This document shows, one piece after another, positions 3,131 through 57,315 of a stretch of DNA of 64,000 nt. This DNA comes from a virus, in IMG/VR virus record IMGVR_UViG_3300035698_011578, positions 31,477 through 95,476 of that record; one strand, written 5' to 3'. Position 1 is the stretch's first letter; each line of letters starts with the position of its first letter. The notes below the pieces were generated by a model. The model saw only the letters and a list, made by a program, of their open reading frames with translations. It did no database searches and was not told where the DNA came from. Made by a program: the position numbers and the translations under genes.

Positions 3131-4336
3131 ATGAATCTTAAATTATCCGAAGACTTTAAATTATTACTCACCAGAATAAAAAATAATAAAGTAGCTAATA
3201 AACTACTTAATTCAGAATTCGATACTAAAAAAATCAATTATAATTATATTGGTTTAGGAGATACTAATAAGTTAGTAAGTTTTACACCCGAAACTAAAGT
3301 AGAGAAAATACTGGAAGAACTACCGATGTATTTTACAATAAACGCAGTTAGAAATCTAACATATAACAATTCTAATAATGCAATATTTGAGGCATTGGGA
3401 TATGATAAAGATGCAAATGAATATTGGTACCCACAAGATCCAGCAACTGATAGAGGAACTATCTTGAGGGAAACTGTTAGTAAGTCAAGTGGCAGAACTT
3501 ATGTTTTATATAAATGTAATCGCACTGGTAGATTAGCAGTAATTAATAAAGAAGCTATAATCGAAAAACAAGAAGATGATTCCTTCTTATTTGAAACTAA
3601 CCGAAATTCTATTAAGGTTGGTCGTTTAGCATCACATATGCTAACCAGTATAGATTTTGATTATACAACAAAAGACATCGAAGATTTTGTTAATTTATAT
3701 AAAGCTTCTTATGACTTCATGGGAAATAAGAGTTTACAATTTGAGATAGTATCAGGTATGGATATTGCATGGTGGTACAATCATGAAAGATACCAATCCG
3801 GTGGTGGTGTGTTAAACAACTCTTGTATGAGTAGCAGACCAGATAGTACATTTGAACTATACACTGAAAATTCTTGCTGTAAGATGATTATCTTATATGC
3901 AGATGATGGTGAAATCGTTGGTGATTTATATAAAGCGATTAGAATTAAAGGTCGTGCCCTTTTATGGGATGTTAAATATAAAGGTGACTCTATTAAATTC
4001 ATGGATAGAGTTTATACTACTAACGATTCTGATGTCGAGCTCTTCAAGGAATATGCAAAGACAGAAGGATGGTGGTTCAAAGAAGAGCAAAGTATGTACC
4101 CTAATGCGAGAGTTACTGATGGTGAAACTATAACTGATGATAGATTCGAGGTTGTATTAGAAAAACCAGATTTTAAATACCATCCATATATGGACACTAT
4201 GTGCCATTGGGTAAATGGTTGCTTAACAAATAGTTTTGATAAGAAACACACAAAGACATTCAGATGTACTAACGGATCACATTGTATTTGTGAAGATGGT
4301 AGAGAAATTAGATATGCTGATATTTCTAATGTTTAA
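3131..4336 (+). CDS. Conserved phage protein (NSCM/GRALLW/FMDRVY/PYMDT family), paralog of 48768..50603
   Basis: Same ordered motifs in both ORFs; TATATTTG promoter upstream near 3098. Confidence 0.75.
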   Translation: MNLKLSEDFKLLLTRIKNNKVANKLLNSEFDTKKINYNYIGLGDTNKLVSFTPETKVEKILEELPMYFTINAVRNLTYNNSNNAIFEALGYDKDANEYWYPQDPATDRGTILRETVSKSSGRTYVLYKCNRTGRLAVINKEAIIEKQEDDSFLFETNRNSIKVGRLASHMLTSIDFDYTTKDIEDFVNLYKASYDFMGNKSLQFEIVSGMDIAWWYNHERYQSGGGVLNNSCMSSRPDSTFELYTENSCCKMIILYADDGEIVGDLYKAIRIKGRALLWDVKYKGDSIKFMDRVYTTNDSDVELFKEYAKTEGWWFKEEQSMYPNARVTDGETITDDRFEVVLEKPDFKYHPYMDTMCHWVNGCLTNSFDKKHTKTFRCTNGSHCICEDGREIRYADISNV

Positions 4337-12580: not shown

Positions 12581-13633
12581 TCATAAAGATAAGGAATACA
12601 CCTCTTCTTTATCTAATATTAGTTTGAAGTTATACCCGTTCTCTTTGTATGACTTAATTTTATCCAACATATTCTGTTCATCATAAGTCCAAGAACTTTT
12701 TATTTCGACTAACTCATTTGTGTCTACTAAATAAAAGTCTGGTATAGAAGTTCTTTCGGTTTTTATATTTGTGTCGAAATATTGTATTCTTAAACTTTCA
12801 ACTTCATATTTTATTTTACCATCATCTAACAACTTAGCATATTCTAATTCATAAGAACTTCTTAACCAATATTTTTTACCTTCCCAACTAACATGATAGC
12901 AAGATTTATATGGATATATCGGTGTGTCAGAGAATGATTGTCTTCCTTTTTTAATAGCCAATCTACCACTCTCACTATTGTTTCTAGTTTTTATGTTTAG
13001 TCGTTTAAATAACATATATACTGTCTGGTAGTTAATATTATATTTTTCTCCTATTTCAACCATTGAATCAGTTTTATATTCATTTTTCAATTTCATAACT
13101 ATTCTATAATACTCATCATAAAAATATATAGTACCAACTTTTGTTAAATTAAAGCCAAATTTAATGAAGCTTTTTGATCCACCTTTATACCAAAATTTAC
13201 ACATATCTGGGTAAATACATTCTTCTTGACCACATATTTTGCAAATTTTCTTTTGACATTTACAACATTTACTATTATTTATACTAGCATTTAATTTTAT
13301 TTTCATATCAACTCCACACTTTTTACATTTAGATTGTTTAAAACAATCTCTATTCACAAAACTTTGAGAGTATTTTGATGAACAACTTTTACAACAACAT
13401 TTCCTATACTTATCTTTATTATACATATTCTCGCTAAGTCCTAATTCATATATTTTATTACAATATAAACATGTAATTTCATAAATTTTACAATTTAACT
13501 TTTTTGTTTCACTTCTTTTCTCTTTTATTTTTAGTTTTTTAGGATTCATATCACAATTTGTGAGATGTGCACCAAATTGTTGATGTTTTACATATTCAAT
13601 TTCACTATTACAATGTTTACATGTTTTTTTCAT
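12581..13633 (-). CDS. Cys-rich PD-(D/E)XK (TnsA-like) homing-type endonuclease
   Basis: Many CxxC; LRSSYE...YEVE...IPDFY...LVEIKS. Confidence 0.75.
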   Translation of the reverse strand: MKKTCKHCNSEIEYVKHQQFGAHLTNCDMNPKKLKIKEKRSETKKLNCKIYEITCLYCNKIYELGLSENMYNKDKYRKCCCKSCSSKYSQSFVNRDCFKQSKCKKCGVDMKIKLNASINNSKCCKCQKKICKICGQEECIYPDMCKFWYKGGSKSFIKFGFNLTKVGTIYFYDEYYRIVMKLKNEYKTDSMVEIGEKYNINYQTVYMLFKRLNIKTRNNSESGRLAIKKGRQSFSDTPIYPYKSCYHVSWEGKKYWLRSSYELEYAKLLDDGKIKYEVESLRIQYFDTNIKTERTSIPDFYLVDTNELVEIKSSWTYDEQNMLDKIKSYKENGYNFKLILDKEEVYSLSL

Positions 13634-13701
13634 ACTTTATATATTAAAATATCAAAGCGTTAAAATTGAAACGAACCAGTATTTTTCGTTTTAGTTTAGA
13701 G

Positions 13702-13852: not shown

Positions 13853-13866
13853 AATTTATTGTGTTA

Positions 13867-13915
13867 TGGCGCAGAGAGGAATCGAACCTCAACACACTCA
13901 CATTTCTTAGTAGAG
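13867..13915 (-). pseudogene. tRNA 3' remnant
   Basis: T-arm GAGG-TTCGATT-CCTC and 3' acceptor strand only; no 5' half found. Confidence 0.45.
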
Positions 13916-13938
13916 AAGTCAAAAAACGAACCCTCTAG

Positions 13939-14024: not shown

Positions 14025-14101
14025 TTGGTGAAGAGGGACTCGAACCCTCATGTGACCAATTACCATTTCAACACGATATAAGCGTGAGTGGATATTCACC
14101 A
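14025..14101 (-). tRNA. Atypical D-armless tRNA-Ile(TAT)-like RNA
   Basis: Acceptor TGGTGAA/TTCACCA, 8-nt linker, CACG-CTTATAT-CGTG, 22-nt extra region, canonical T arm. Confidence 0.65.
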
Positions 14102-14103
14102 AT

Positions 14104-14141
14104 AAAAAAAAGCAGTCACTTTTTGAAAGTGACTGCTTTTT
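14104..14141 (-). terminator. Attenuator terminator of Ile/Ala/Gly tRNA operon
   Basis: GCAGTCACTTT-caa-AAAGTGACTGC followed by T8 on minus strand. Confidence 0.85.
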
Positions 14142-14164
14142 AATTTTTTAATATTTCTGAGATA

Positions 14165-14245
14165 TTAAATAACATAATTCAGCCACCCGAAGTTCCCTCC
14201 TGCTATACCGTTGCCGTTTGCCGCTATGTTATTAATTGTTCTCAT
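14165..14245 (-). CDS. Leader peptide MRTINNIAANGNGIAGGNFGWLNYVI
   Basis: Hand translation; ATA GCG GCA AAC GGC AAC GGT ATA GCA GGA GGG; GTGGCTG pairs with terminator 5' arm CAGTCAC. Confidence 0.85.
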   Translation of the reverse strand: MRTINNIAANGNGIAGGNFGWLNYVI

Positions 14246-21244: not shown

Positions 21245-21312
21245 AAGCACATAGGGGAATCGAACCCCCGTTTACTGAAAATCTGTCGTCCTAACCACTA
21301 GACGAATGCGCC
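21245..21312 (-). tRNA. tRNA-Glu(TTC), anticodon stem damaged (possible pseudo-tRNA)
   Basis: Glu-type D arm TTCGTCTAGTGGTTAGGAC; ACAGA-TTTTCAG with 3' stem strand mostly missing. Confidence 0.65.
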
Positions 21313-21543: not shown

Positions 21544-21638
21544 TGTCTTTATTGTTTCTTTATTGTTTCTTTCTAATTCTTTTACAAATATAAGGAAGAT
21601 ATTTTAAACCACCAAATATATTTTCATTTTTCTTTTTG

Positions 21639-21710: not shown

Positions 21711-22159
21711 ATATTGTATTTCTATATATTAAAAAGTTGGTCTCCCTTTTACAAAAGTAGTAAAAATTTATGAGAATATCAAACATTATTATATGCCCTC
21801 AGTGTAAATGGGAAATCAAATACGATAAATCCACCTGTTATTTCATCTTTTATGTCCAAATCATCATTAGCAAGTTTTGACATGTCACATCTTGTAAACG
21901 ACTCAGCATCTTTATAAAGATAATTATATGTTGATATATTTTCAATACCCACAAAATCTTTTATTCTATAAATTATATCAGATATTTCACTGAAATAATA
22001 AGGTTCAGAATACAATAAGAATGGAAGGATTATCTAAAGATATAGAAAAGAATTCCATCTCACAAAGAACTAGATTATATGTTCGCTATTTAAGTAGAAA
22101 TCCAATACCTAATTTTAAATTAGAGACCAATAGCAACACAATAAAATTAATTAAAAATA

Positions 22160-34516: not shown

Positions 34517-34575
34517 AATAAATTTGGATAATTAAAACTTTTACCGTATATTTGTATAAGATAATGAGAAAATAA
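34517..34575 (+). promoter_or_regulatory. Bacteroidota-type promoter block; identical 59-bp copy at 43217..43275
   Basis: TTTG-N20-TATATTTG; followed in both copies by TTTTAATATATA and a leader ORF. Confidence 0.8.
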
Positions 34576-34610
34576 CAAAAACAGAGAATAAACTTTTAAT
34601 ATATAAAACA

Positions 34611-34721
34611 ATGAAAAACAGAAATCTAAATATGAACACGAATTTAACACTCAACGTAGTGAATATTACTTTATGTAATATTAGACGAACTGAGGGTTGT
34701 GATCAATTTAGACTTTATTGA
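34611..34721 (+). CDS. Leader peptide MKNRNLNMNTNLTLNVVNITLCNIRRTEGCDQFRLY
   Basis: Residues 3-27 use only N,R,L,M,T,V,I,C; CTGAGGGTT (34690-34698) pairs with terminator 5' arm. Confidence 0.85.
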   Translation: MKNRNLNMNTNLTLNVVNITLCNIRRTEGCDQFRLY

Positions 34722-35066: not shown

Positions 35067-35765
35067 ATGAGTGAATTAAGAAATAAAATAATAGAATTAA
35101 GAATTAATGGTAAAAAATATACAGAAATAAGTGAGATATTAGGATGTTCTAAATCAACGATAAGTTATCACTGTAAACGAAATAAAAAAATAATTTATAT
35201 CGAGAATGTTGATATTGAATCACAGACAGAAATAGTAGAATATCGAGAAATTGGTTTAAGATTAATAGAAATATATGAAAAATTAGAAAAAAGAATAACT
35301 AAAGAAAATATTAAAATAATATGTAGAAAAAATGGATTATCTTATTTAGATAGATTAAATGAAGAAGATATAAATAAGATTCGTGAGAAATATAAAGAAA
35401 TAGGTAAACTTAGAAAAGTTGCCAGAATATTAGGATATAGTTTTAGCACAGTTAAAAAAAATGTTATTGATTTAATTGAAGATTTTAATAAAAATAAGAA
35501 AAATATAAGTAATTCAGAATCTGTTATAAATTGGAGAAAAAGAGTTAAAATAAAATTAGTAGAATATAAGGGAGGGAAATGTGAAAGATGTGGTTATAAT
35601 AAGTACGTGGAAGTCTTAGAATTCCACCATAGAGATGAGTATGAAAAAGATTTTACAATATCAGGTAAATCTTGGTCATATGAAAGATTAAAAAATGAAG
35701 TTGATAAATGCATTATGCTATGTTCAAATTGTCATAAAGAAATGCATATAGAGAATAAAAATTAA
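35067..35765 (+). CDS. HNH homing endonuclease with HTH repeats, inside tRNA array
   Basis: CERCGY...LEFHH...LCSNCHKEMH. Confidence 0.85.
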   Translation: MSELRNKIIELRINGKKYTEISEILGCSKSTISYHCKRNKKIIYIENVDIESQTEIVEYREIGLRLIEIYEKLEKRITKENIKIICRKNGLSYLDRLNEEDINKIREKYKEIGKLRKVARILGYSFSTVKKNVIDLIEDFNKNKKNISNSESVINWRKRVKIKLVEYKGGKCERCGYNKYVEVLEFHHRDEYEKDFTISGKSWSYERLKNEVDKCIMLCSNCHKEMHIENKN

Positions 35766-35771
35766 TAAAAT

Positions 35772-36126: not shown

Positions 36127-36203
36127 CGGTGTGTATACCCTCCGGCTGATACCCGGTTGAAAGGTTAATTGGTTACACGTAGGTTCAATTCCTACCTCAC
36201 CGA
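36127..36203 (+). tRNA. Atypical D-armless tRNA-Ile(GAT)-like RNA
   Basis: CCGG-CT-GAT-AC-CCGG after an 8-nt linker; same layout as 14025..14101. Confidence 0.7.
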
Positions 36204-36370: not shown

Positions 36371-36453
36371 GCCTTCTTCGCATAGTGGCTATTGCACCTG
36401 ACTTTAATCAGGCGAGGTAAAACTCATCGTGGGTCCGAGTCCCACAGAAGGCT
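36371..36453 (+). tRNA. tRNA-Thr-like gene with 6-nt anticodon loop
   Basis: CCTGA-CTTTAA-TCAGG; equals CTTGTAA (Thr TGT) minus G; GCC-starting acceptor. Confidence 0.6.
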
Positions 36454-36466
36454 CAAAATTTAATAT

Positions 36467-43216: not shown

Positions 43217-43275
43217 AATAAATTTGGATAATTAAAACTTTTACCGTATATTTGTATAAGATAATGAGAAAATAA
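43217..43275 (+). promoter_or_regulatory. Bacteroidota-type promoter block, identical to 34517..34575
   Basis: 59-bp exact match. Confidence 0.8.
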
Positions 43276-43309
43276 TAAAAGGAAGAACAAATTTTTAATA
43301 TATAGGATA

Positions 43310-43408
43310 ATGAAAAAAGTAAATGTAAATATAACAGTAGTAAATCAACCGCAAGTTGATCAAGATCCGATTTTAATCAGGACTAGCCGTGCTTTGCAAA
43401 TAACTTAA
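43310..43408 (+). CDS. Leader peptide MKKVNVNITVVNQPQVDQDPILIRTSRALQIT
   Basis: CAA CCG CAA GTT GAT CAA GAT CCG block matches downstream Gln/Pro/Asp tRNAs. Confidence 0.8.
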   Translation: MKKVNVNITVVNQPQVDQDPILIRTSRALQIT

Positions 43409-43430
43409 GTTAAAAAGTTAAAAACAAATA

Positions 43431-43462
43431 AAACCCAGTTAGTTAATTCTAACTGGGTTTTT
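43431..43462 (+). terminator. Attenuator terminator of Asp/Gln/Pro tRNA operon
   Basis: AAACCCAGTTAG-ttaatt-CTAACTGGGTTTTT. Confidence 0.85.
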
Positions 43463-43528
43463 CTATATTGTAACAATAAATGTCAGTTTTTGGTGTTCGG
43501 ATTTCAATATATAAAAATAAAAGAGAAT

Positions 43529-44215
43529 ATGAGAAATAGATATGAGAAAGAATATTTTACTGAAGTAATAAAAAACTCCCAAAACTTATCAGATGTTTGT
43601 AGAAATATAGGATTAAAGAGTTTTTATGGTAATAGACAAACAGTTAAGAAAAATATTGAAAAATATAAACTTGATATAAGTCATTTTAGATACCACAAAA
43701 GTGGTGGTAGAATAAAAATACCAACAAGAGATATATTAGTTGAAAATTCTACTTATAGCAGCACTACCTGTATTAAAGAAAGGTTATATGAAGAGGGCTA
43801 TAAAGAAAGAAAGTGTGAATTATGTGGACAAGGAGAAAATTGGAATAATATGAAGATTAGTTTAATTTTAGATCACATAAATGGGATAAATAATGATAAT
43901 AGAATAGAAAATCTTAGAATAGTTTGCCCAAATTGTAATGCTGGTTTAGATACTCATGGTGGTAAAAATATATCAAAAAACAGTAAGTATAATTATTCAG
44001 AAGATTTAGTTAATAAGAAGTATTATTGTGATTGTGGTAATGAAATGTGGAAAAATTCGAAGTGTTGTAAAGTATGTTTTGATATAAAACAAAGAAGAGT
44101 TAAAAGACCAGATAAAGAAATATTATTAAAAGATGTAGAAAAATTAGGCTATACTGGAACAGGAAGAAAATATAATGTTAGTGATAATACTATTAGAAAA
44201 TGGTTAAAAAAGTAG
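43529..44215 (+). CDS. HNH homing endonuclease
   Basis: CELCG...LDHINGINNDNRIENLRIVCPNCN. Confidence 0.9.
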   Translation: MRNRYEKEYFTEVIKNSQNLSDVCRNIGLKSFYGNRQTVKKNIEKYKLDISHFRYHKSGGRIKIPTRDILVENSTYSSTTCIKERLYEEGYKERKCELCGQGENWNNMKISLILDHINGINNDNRIENLRIVCPNCNAGLDTHGGKNISKNSKYNYSEDLVNKKYYCDCGNEMWKNSKCCKVCFDIKQRRVKRPDKEILLKDVEKLGYTGTGRKYNVSDNTIRKWLKK

Positions 44216-44422: not shown

Positions 44423-44493
44423 GGCCTATTGGGGTATGGGTATCCTTTCACACTATCACTGTGAAGAACCGAGTTCGAGTCTCGGATAGGCCG
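44423..44493 (+). tRNA. tRNA-Asp(ATC)
   Basis: TCACA-CT-ATC-AC-TGTGA, G73. Confidence 0.75.
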
Positions 44494-44504
44494 CAAAAAT
44501 ATAA

Positions 44505-56595: not shown

Positions 56596-56937
56596 ACTAA
56601 ATTAATTTTGCGTATATACATTAAAAGTATTGTATAGCAAAAGAAGATATCAATGTTAATAATACGTTCTATTTTAAAAAAGATAGAGCGTATTTTTATA
56701 AAGTAACGAAGCATGAAGATACTGGTATTAAATTAATTTATGTGTATCATAAAGATGATATAGATAGTGACTCCTTTTTAGATGGATACCCATTTGTAGA
56801 ATATAGTTTCAATTCTAAGTTTACTGATAAGCAACAACATCGTATAAAGCAACTTGAAAAAATTGGAATTTAAGTAAGAGAAAATTTGGATAAGTGAATA
56901 TTTTACCCTATCTTTGTATCAACAAAATTAAGAAAAC

Positions 56938-56948
56938 GTTCTTTAACA
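56938..56948 (+). promoter_or_regulatory. boxA-like site after TTTG...TATCTTTG promoter
   Basis: GTTCTTTAACA. Confidence 0.55.
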
Positions 56949-56964
56949 TATTGAAAAAAATATT

Positions 56965-57076
56965 GGGGAGAGTACCAAAGTGGTCAAATGGAGTCACGAT
57001 GCTGAGTATTAATAATACAAAGCTATGTAACGTGATCGGCTTGTAGTCTTCGGGGGTTCGAATCCTTCTTCTTGTA
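56965..57076 (+). tRNA. Tyr/Ser-type tRNA-like gene with about 25-nt insert in anticodon loop
   Basis: D arm TACCAAAGTGGTCAAATGG, stem TCACG/CGTGA enclosing 32 nt, variable arm, GGTTCGAATCC; imperfect acceptor. Confidence 0.5.
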
Positions 57077-57127
57077 AAACAATTGGGATAGACAACGATT
57101 CAGATACAAGTCCCTTTTTCACAACAT

Positions 57128-57198
57128 GGTCGGTTCGTCTAGTGGTTAGGACGGTTGCTTCACAGTGATTACAGAGTGTTCGACTCCTCTACCGACTA
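57128..57198 (+). tRNA. Glu-type tRNA body with aberrant anticodon loop
   Basis: GGTCGGTTCGTCTAGTGGTTAGGAC...GTTGC-TTCACA-GTGAT. Confidence 0.55.
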
Positions 57199-57283
57199 CA
57201 AGTTTTCGTAGTGGTTAACTTCTCTATTTTATAGAGGGTCTGTGCAATGCAGTAAAGGTTACCATAACACCTTTTTTGATTTC

Positions 57284-57315
57284 TAACCTCTCACATATTC
57301 GTGGGAGGTTTTTTT
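57284..57315 (+). terminator. Intrinsic terminator
   Basis: AACCTCTCAC-atattc-GTGGGAGGTTTTTTT. Confidence 0.8.

Follow-up and report, generated by a model that had tools for sequence, protein, structure and literature searches.

The locus analyzed here raises the question of why a phage would place a short open reading frame (ORF) and a strong intrinsic terminator between a promoter and an array of tRNA genes. Our answer is that this unit is probably a ribosome-mediated (leader-peptide) transcription attenuator in the style of trp, which would gate the phage tRNA operon according to demand; the anatomy, the codon match between ORF and array, the alternative RNA pairings and their conservation are all present in the sequence itself. 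The window, i.e., the whole 64-kb stretch of DNA that was analyzed, is part of a 95-kb IMG/VR virus record that is 13% complete by CheckV, which suggests a whole genome of several hundred kb, and its G+C content is ~28%. The sequencing runs containing this stretch are salt-lake metagenomes comprising DNA only; contigs from four DNA runs were short and of low depth, lying over the tRNAs with none spanning the leader, and yielded no strain variants of the leader.

The whole unit is encoded on the minus strand, proceeding from promoter to 26-codon ORF, terminator and tRNA array, with the following parts:

14355-14324, minus strand: promoter of Bacteroidota type (TTTG, 20 nt, TAtaTTTG), from a regex scan
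14282-14273, minus strand: TTAATATATA box, 27 nt 5' of the ATG
14245-14165, minus strand: leader ORF with ATG start, 26 codons and TAA stop, read from the sequence
14233-14220, minus strand: region 1 (codons 5-9), pairing with region 2 in the full-length fold
14227-14195, minus strand: control codons 7-17, of which 9/11 are read by the array anticodons TAT, TGC, GCC and TCC
14188-14168, minus strand: region 2, with GGGUGGCUG (14188-14180) as the antiterminator strand
14141-14126, minus strand: region 3, the terminator 5' arm, containing CAGUCAC (stem call, duplex and alignment)
14122-14104, minus strand: region 4, the terminator 3' arm and T-run (stem call)
14101-14025, minus strand: D-armless tRNA-like RNA with anticodon UAU in the loop CUUAUAU (Rfam tRNA, 29.8 bits)
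14012-13938, minus strand: tRNA-Ala(TGC) with a G3:U70 pair (tRNA call and sequence)
13852-13781, minus strand: tRNA-Gly(GCC) (Rfam, 47.3 bits; anticodon taken from alignment)
13772-13701, minus strand: tRNA-Gly(TCC) (tRNA call; Rfam, 53.1 bits)

This layout, with a promoter, an ORF bearing a start codon, a terminator abutting the first tRNA and an antiterminator strand within the 3' end of the ORF, supports the attenuator that the earlier note had proposed from this DNA. The promoter opens a block of ~100 nt that is repeated upstream of three other leaders in the window (83% identity at 34528-34625 and 43228-43304; 76% at 21548-21607); an exact scan of IMG/VR with the block gave no match, and no relatives of the upstream 326-aa ORF were found in IMG/VR. 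The second upstream element, TTAATATATA, occurs in 27 copies in the window vs. 5.8 expected, a roughly five-fold excess, and is also found immediately upstream of tRNA-Met and of many ORFs; it is probably a phage-specific promoter element. Those sites that were checked, e.g., 13638-13647 (minus), 21723-21732 (minus), 34596-34605 (plus) and 43295-43304 (plus), lie a few nt 5' of a start codon or of tRNA-Met, and in two sister leaders the box is just 5 nt from the ATG, such that their mRNAs would be nearly leaderless. The region upstream of the leader ORF is A-rich and lacks a Shine-Dalgarno sequence.

The leader ORF is unusual in its codons. Codons 7-17 comprise two ATA, GCG, two GCA, GGC, GGT, GGA and GGG plus two AAC, exactly as the earlier note had listed them, and its description of a GC-rich patch in an AT-rich genome holds as well, since this 33-nt control block has 58% G+C vs. 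~28% for the window. The fifth Gly codon of the leader is codon 20 (GGG), and the three AAC codons within or beside the patch have no cognate tRNA in the leader's own array. Codons readable by the four array anticodons make up 11% of the phage's long ORFs vs. 9/11 in this block. In a window scan, the leader scored 6.9 (-log10) against its own array, a value reached by 0/20,000 random 25-codon windows drawn from the phage's own long ORFs, so that the proposed match to the downstream Ile-like, Ala and Gly anticodons is borne out; against the other three arrays in the window, the same leader scored at most 2.2. When all four leaders were set against all four arrays, the diagonal of the 4x4 matrix read 6.9/4.4/8.6/5.8, with off-diagonal scores not exceeding 2.8. 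Counts of matching codons over whole leaders were dropped in favor of this window scan, being too diluted for short leaders.

Downstream of the ORF, after an A/T-rich spacer of 23 nt, is an intrinsic terminator (14141-14107) with a 16-bp stem, a 3-nt loop and a run of 8 T ending at 14104, and the end of this run is followed ~3 nt later by the first tRNA-type gene. A motif scan between the leader ORF and the first tRNA found no promoter, and this, together with the ~3-nt gap, indicates that the array is transcribed only by read-through of the terminator. The terminator stem carries two compensatory pair changes between this phage and its relatives. In two relatives, the terminator is duplicated in tandem with a near-identical stem before the D-armless UAU RNA (L012 at ~3190-3262 and L016 at ~135-210).

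The first gene of the array is atypical, lacking the D arm and carrying an insert of 18 nt, and its score lies just above the Rfam tRNA gathering score of 29. The earlier note had matched the leader's ATA codons to this TAT RNA, in keeping with which we found the anticodon loop CUUAUAU and the Rfam tRNA hit; furthermore, its position in the array is that of a canonical tRNA-Ile(TAT) in relatives, and similar D-armless copies are present in L008, L012, L016 and L018. The presence of ATA codons in the leader argues that this odd RNA is a working decoder of ATA. As to the design itself, it recurs in the window at 14025-14101 (minus) and 36127-36203 (plus), and in relatives at ~24980-25062 in L008, ~3267-3350 in L012, ~215-298 in L016 and ~2617-2703 in L018, with a 7-bp acceptor stem, 4-8 nt replacing the D arm, an anticodon stem-loop with UAU (once GAU), an extra region of 22-26 nt that often contains GTAGCGG, and a T arm of normal form. 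Between copies, compensating changes are seen by eye in the acceptor and anticodon stems, suggesting that they are working genes and not products of decay. A further element in the spacer between tRNA-Ala(TGC) and tRNA-Gly(GCC), at 13858-13935 (minus), combines a well-formed T arm with a 3' acceptor strand and CCA and has no matching 5' half; called by neither ARAGORN nor Rfam, it may be what is left of a tRNA or else an RNA of unrecognised kind.

What would allow the polymerase to pass the terminator is an alternative pairing. As the earlier note had pointed out, GTGGCTG at 14186-14180, near the 3' end of the ORF, is able to pair with CAGTCAC (14135-14129) in the terminator 5' arm, forming six Watson-Crick pairs and one G-U pair; RNAduplex extends this antiterminator to 9 bp at -12.4 kcal/mol, a value matched by 26/2000 codon shuffles. 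The helix is short, with 7 bp plus two G-U pairs. When ORFs and terminator arms were permuted among units, the cognate pairing ranked 1/24 in this phage, 1/120 in the uncultured phage LR745206 and 11/120 in LR756502. Within region 2, GCUGAAUUAUGUUAUU, which overlaps GGGUGGCUG, is in turn the partner of region 1, and the full transcript (minimum free energy -40.1 kcal/mol; z -6.35) folds into 1:2 plus 3:4. We found the equilibrium fold to be uninformative as a test of the switch since the terminator always wins, and we replaced it with transcripts truncated before region 4. A weak GGCGC:GUGGC helix, suggested by RNAalifold in relatives, was rejected, being absent from this phage and containing a mismatch.

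In the truncated transcripts, cut before the 3' arm, a ribosome was represented by a mask from -18 to +12 around the A site, with these limits being approximate. With the A site at codons 2-15, the terminator 5' arm was predicted to be paired upstream with a probability of 0.65-0.68, falling to 0.02-0.17 at codons 16-23, with 0.29 at the stop; a comparable drop was seen in 14/14 leaders of the family described below, the weakest being L008_EY. Codons 16-17 (GGA, GGG) lie at or beyond the point where a stalled ribosome covers the antiterminator, and if no ribosome is present, only about half of the truncated transcript is predicted to adopt the antiterminator. This profile is the behavior expected of a trp-type attenuator, with a stall in the control block giving read-through and smooth translation giving termination.

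An alternative is that the terminator is constitutive and somewhat leaky, following a short ORF that is untranslated or irrelevant, and serves either to end upstream transcription or to fix a low tRNA level. The stem is indeed very strong (16 bp plus 8 T) and at equilibrium always beats the 7-9-bp alternative, as this explanation would have it, but it leaves unexplained the preference of the ORF's 3' end for the arm of its own terminator over those of other units. In view of this and of the codon and frame evidence taken up below, we consider a leaky terminator to be improbable.

For an attenuator, we infer that the ORF is translated, that stalling leads to read-through and that the phage tRNAs are the relevant ones. 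Transcription would start at the Bacteroidota-type promoter and/or the TTAATATATA box, and a ribosome would translate the 26-codon leader as RNA polymerase nears the terminator. If decoding is fast, the ribosome would enter codons 16-26 up to the stop and cover region 2 (GGGUGGCUG...), upon which the 16-bp terminator would form and the transcript would end 3 nt before the first tRNA gene. If charged Ile(UAU), Ala(UGC) or Gly(GCC/UCC) is scarce, the ribosome would wait at ATA, GCR or GGN (approximately codons 7-15), thereby occupying region 1 and leaving region 2 free to pair with the terminator 5' arm; with the 2:3 pairing in place, the polymerase would read through into the four tRNA genes. 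The new tRNAs would then accelerate decoding and turn the unit off, amounting to negative feedback on the supply of those same tRNAs. A stalled ribosome does not distinguish a missing from an uncharged tRNA.

Relatives of this unit provide a view of which parts are retained. A BLAST search with the region matched only the tRNA-Ala of two uncultured phages, LR756502.1 and LR745206.1 (642 and 635 kb). Both harbor homologous leaders with the same N-terminal codons, an ATA/GCG/GGN block, GTGGCTG and CAGTCAC, and in both the terminator lies 7-13 nt before Ile(TAT), Gly(TCC), Gly(GCC) and Ala(TGC); as these phages were retrieved through the tRNA, the conservation of their leaders is an independent observation. 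GTGGCTGA..TATG is invariant in the relatives retrieved via tRNA-Ala and not via the motif (L008 and L009). Seven further non-identical versions came from IMG/VR and metagenome contigs, one of which was retrieved via its tRNA-Ile and has TTGGCTG as region 2. Ten non-identical versions, sharing ancestry and hence not independent in count, with 6/10 retrieved by a pattern demanding regions 2-4, keep the start codon, the control-codon frame, region 2 and the terminator before Ile(UAU)/Gly/Ala arrays, and the leader ORF is intact in all of them. Retention of the control-codon frame in relatives was the check that the earlier note had named beforehand, and the frame is kept in 10/10 versions. A leaky terminator behind an irrelevant ORF does not account for the survival of a start codon and a control frame in ten diverged versions with indels right behind them.

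The indels in question are found in L012, L016, L013 and L019, where they lie just after the control block and shift the frame, with the stop becoming the TGA inside GGCTGA. They bear on another explanation, namely that the ORF encodes a functional Gly/Ala-rich micropeptide and that the terminator merely ends its gene. The ORF is conserved, and an N-terminal N-I as well as a tail of W-L-x-Y-V recur in several relatives, as one would expect of a micropeptide; nevertheless, the four relatives read GTGGCTGA..TATG in another frame with the stop inside, resulting in loss of the tail, and conserved nucleotides that are read in two frames argue against a functional peptide tail. In addition, the codons for the conserved N-I and Y-V are complementary as RNA (AACATA / TATGTT) and form the base of the long 1:2 helix in this phage, a pairing that is kept in 5/9 aligned leaders, with the 1:2 helix itself being absent from the RNAalifold consensus. 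The peptides of paralogous leaders, moreover, are unrelated and track their arrays. Taken at the level of sequence, the conserved entity is the RNA and not the peptide, and we regard a functional micropeptide as very unlikely.

The attenuator reading gains further support from homologues in independent huge-phage contigs, as given above, and from sister leaders that match their own arrays. In the window, there are three sister units, each of which has, behind a copy of the promoter block, a short ORF, then a strong terminator and finally a tRNA array: a Y-Y-Y-E-E leader precedes Tyr/Glu-like/Tyr tRNAs, a leader rich in Asn/Leu/Thr/Val/Arg/Cys precedes exactly those tRNAs, and a Q-P-Q-V-D-Q-D-P leader precedes Gln/Pro/Asp tRNAs. 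LR756502.1 and LR745206.1 have five units each within fifty kb around the tRNA-Ala matches, including types without a counterpart in the window, i.e., an F/H/K/W leader before Phe, His, Trp and Lys tRNAs and an R/S leader before Arg(ACG), Arg(TCG) and Ser(TGA, GCT, GGA). Altogether, the family comprises 14 units across three phages, with a stop-to-stem distance of 19-33 nt. The leaders share an N-terminal scaffold and the promoter, and paralogous leader peptides are otherwise unrelated to one another, their content tracking their own array. That each of the 14 leaders harbors codons of its own array is again left unexplained by a leaky terminator.

One sister unit stands apart. For the Gln/Pro/Asp leader at 43310-43465 (plus), we found no convincing antiterminator, with the best duplex at -3.9 kcal/mol being reached by 1565/2000 shuffles; it has a strong terminator, and an HNH-like gene lies between the leader and the tRNAs. 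This unit may work differently or may be in decay.

Several other observations were made on the arrays. At 21245-21312 (minus), between two Tyr tRNAs, is a Glu-like tRNA (Rfam, 45 bits) in which the 3' strand of the anticodon stem is apparently missing and which ARAGORN detects only at a lowered threshold, as Cys(ACA). A tRNA at 36371-36454 (plus), with a long variable arm and an anticodon loop of 6 nt, is given no isotype by ARAGORN, and the anticodon of a tRNA-Asp at 44423-44494 (plus) is the unusual ATC (A34). Several ORFs, most having HNH-like Cys/His motifs and one, in LR756502, being GIY-YIG-like, as judged by eye, are found in or beside tRNA arrays, between an attenuator and its tRNAs; they lie at 35067-35770 (plus), 43521-44215 (plus) and 12581-13633 (minus) in the window and at ~24100-24790 in L008. 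Finally, at 56885-57300 (plus), a Bacteroidota-type promoter lies directly before tRNA-like sequences and a terminator without a leader ORF, indicating that attenuation does not extend to all of this phage's tRNA clusters; the tRNA-like sequence at 57128-57198 scores 26.8 bits on Rfam tRNA, and ARAGORN finds none there.

How specific would such sensing be? The earlier note had emphasized that the leader uses all four Gly codons and had proposed that tRNA species are sensed and not only amino acids. The former is correct for this phage, with a P of ~0.035 for having all four among five codons under genome usage (GGT 63%, GGA 24%, GGG 9%, GGC 4%), but we rejected it as a conserved design feature because the relatives use GGC, GGA and GGG, with GGT being 1/29 Gly codons. 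What is conserved in each leader is at least one GGY plus at least one GGR codon, and hence both Gly isoacceptors are sampled. Codons were counted for each amino acid over nine non-identical leaders of the Ile/Ala/Gly type, which share ancestry and are not independent: Ile was encoded by ATA in 13/15 cases (phage usage: ATA 44%, ATT 44%, ATC 12%), Ala by GCA or GCG in 23/25 and never by GCT (phage usage: GCA 52%, GCT 35%, GCC 7%, GCG 6%), and Gly by GGC, GGA or GGG in 28/29, with GGT appearing once. ATA and GCR are the codons to be expected for anticodons UAU and UGC. Anticodon matching does not explain why GGC is favored over GGT, and GCG over GCA, and this bias may serve RNA pairing or slow decoding.

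A comparison of leader types is more informative. Ile is ATA here, before the TAT RNA, vs. ATT in the sister leader type with a GAT-type tRNA (Fisher p = 0.0014), and Arg is CGN before Arg(ACG/TCG) vs. AGA before Arg(TCT) (Fisher p = 0.015), with AGA making up 76% of Arg codons. Over the 14 leaders, which include related sequences and therefore do not yield independent counts, 167/174 array-served codons are readable by the anticodons of the leader's own array vs. 154.7 expected from synonymous usage, with 0/20,000 simulations reaching 167. Matching at the codon level is supported for Ile (ATA), Ala (GCA/GCG) and Arg in the sister leaders, and was overstated for the four Gly codons.

These choices also bear on the possibility that a translated leader senses general translation capacity or the coupling of transcription to translation, responding to any slowdown instead of to particular tRNA species. 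A stall anywhere in codons 2-15 would trigger this architecture, the N-terminal scaffold and promoter are common to the leaders, and a tRNA operon in Anabaena answers to general translational stress (PMC8421152). A general sensor, on the other hand, needs neither array-specific codon content nor synonymous choices that track anticodons (ATA vs. ATT, CGN vs. AGA), and we judge it to be unlikely, marginally more so than the leaky terminator.

If the leaders are attenuators specific for their arrays, a broader picture may be drawn. We surmise, at about even chances of being right, that Bacteroidota huge phages possess a codon-resolved tRNA homeostat, with a translated 'dipstick' before every accessory array and each set of tRNAs being transcribed only on stalling for it. 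Ribosomes could stall as host tRNAs decay or when an anticodon-nuclease defence strikes, suggesting a link to host defences that target tRNA. If the homeostat is real, the leaders would be sensors of demand and possibly triggers of counter-defence, and they would indicate which codons are decoded by atypical tRNAs, the D-armless UAU RNA being an example.

Among known systems, leader-peptide attenuation is the textbook control of amino-acid operons, with enterobacterial examples in trpL, hisL, leuL and pheL and in the multivalent thrL and ilvL of ilvGMEDA. As in these, the ORF of the phage unit is short, contains a run of control codons with rare synonymous choices among them (cf. CUA in leuL) and lies between a promoter and an intrinsic terminator; its stop codon is so located that region 2 would be covered by a ribosome terminating there. 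The 2:3 and 3:4 helices exclude each other, and a 1:2 helix, which would compete with 2:3, is predicted in this phage and only partly kept in relatives. The phage unit differs in that it would regulate tRNAs instead of biosynthetic enzymes, with the loop closing on tRNA supply, in that its leader samples three amino acids via four anticodons, and in being phage-borne, with a Bacteroidota-type promoter, without a Shine-Dalgarno sequence and without sequence or Rfam similarity. No match to the Rfam Trp, His, Leu or Thr leader families was found over the leader, and the downstream genes are tRNAs; the phage unit is not a member of any Rfam leader family. Closer in target is the E. coli pheST operon with its pheM leader, an attenuator of phenylalanyl-tRNA synthetase. 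There too, attenuation by a leader peptide is directed at the decoding machinery, with charged-tRNA levels as the signal, but pheST controls a synthetase and responds to a single amino acid, whereas the product of the phage unit is the tRNA itself.

The T-box presents a different kind of likeness, as tRNA status likewise selects between terminator and antiterminator before translation-related genes, and one may ask whether the leader RNA senses tRNA directly in this manner, without translation. Both the output (terminator/antiterminator) and the signal (tRNA status) resemble T-box logic. A T-box, however, binds uncharged tRNA directly via a specifier codon and the T-box motif with no ribosome involved, whereas a start codon, an open frame and many in-frame codons cognate to four anticodons are features of decoding and not of a single specifier loop. 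Furthermore, no T-box or other Rfam family was found at even a weak score: the leader and array gave no T-box match even at E ≤ 1 to 10, and at permissive thresholds only tRNA came near any gathering score. Of the explanations considered, direct sensing appears to us the least likely.

In a full-text literature search, we found no account of leader-peptide attenuation of tRNA genes. The nearest published case is the trn operon (L-array) of Anabaena sp. PCC 7120, a tRNA array that is induced under translational stress (PMC8421152) and controlled by promoter repeats and the repressor TrcR (PMC8421152; PMC10272220); the words attenuator, leader and terminator are absent from PMC8421152. As proposed for the phage, the accessory tRNA array remains off until translation falters, with the difference that the signal in Anabaena is general stress and is not codon-specific. 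If our reading of the phage unit is correct, it would represent a new use of leader-peptide attenuation, acting on tRNA genes themselves, and the first cis-acting feedback known for tRNA supply; phages would then meter tRNAs by codon family, beyond merely carrying them, and the leaders would provide a sequence-readable record of the codons that a phage treats as limiting as well as compact, modular parts for synthetic sensors of tRNA availability. By analogy, we postulate that the unit would work like the multivalent attenuators of thr and ilvGMEDA, with the pheST leader as its nearest counterpart in target.
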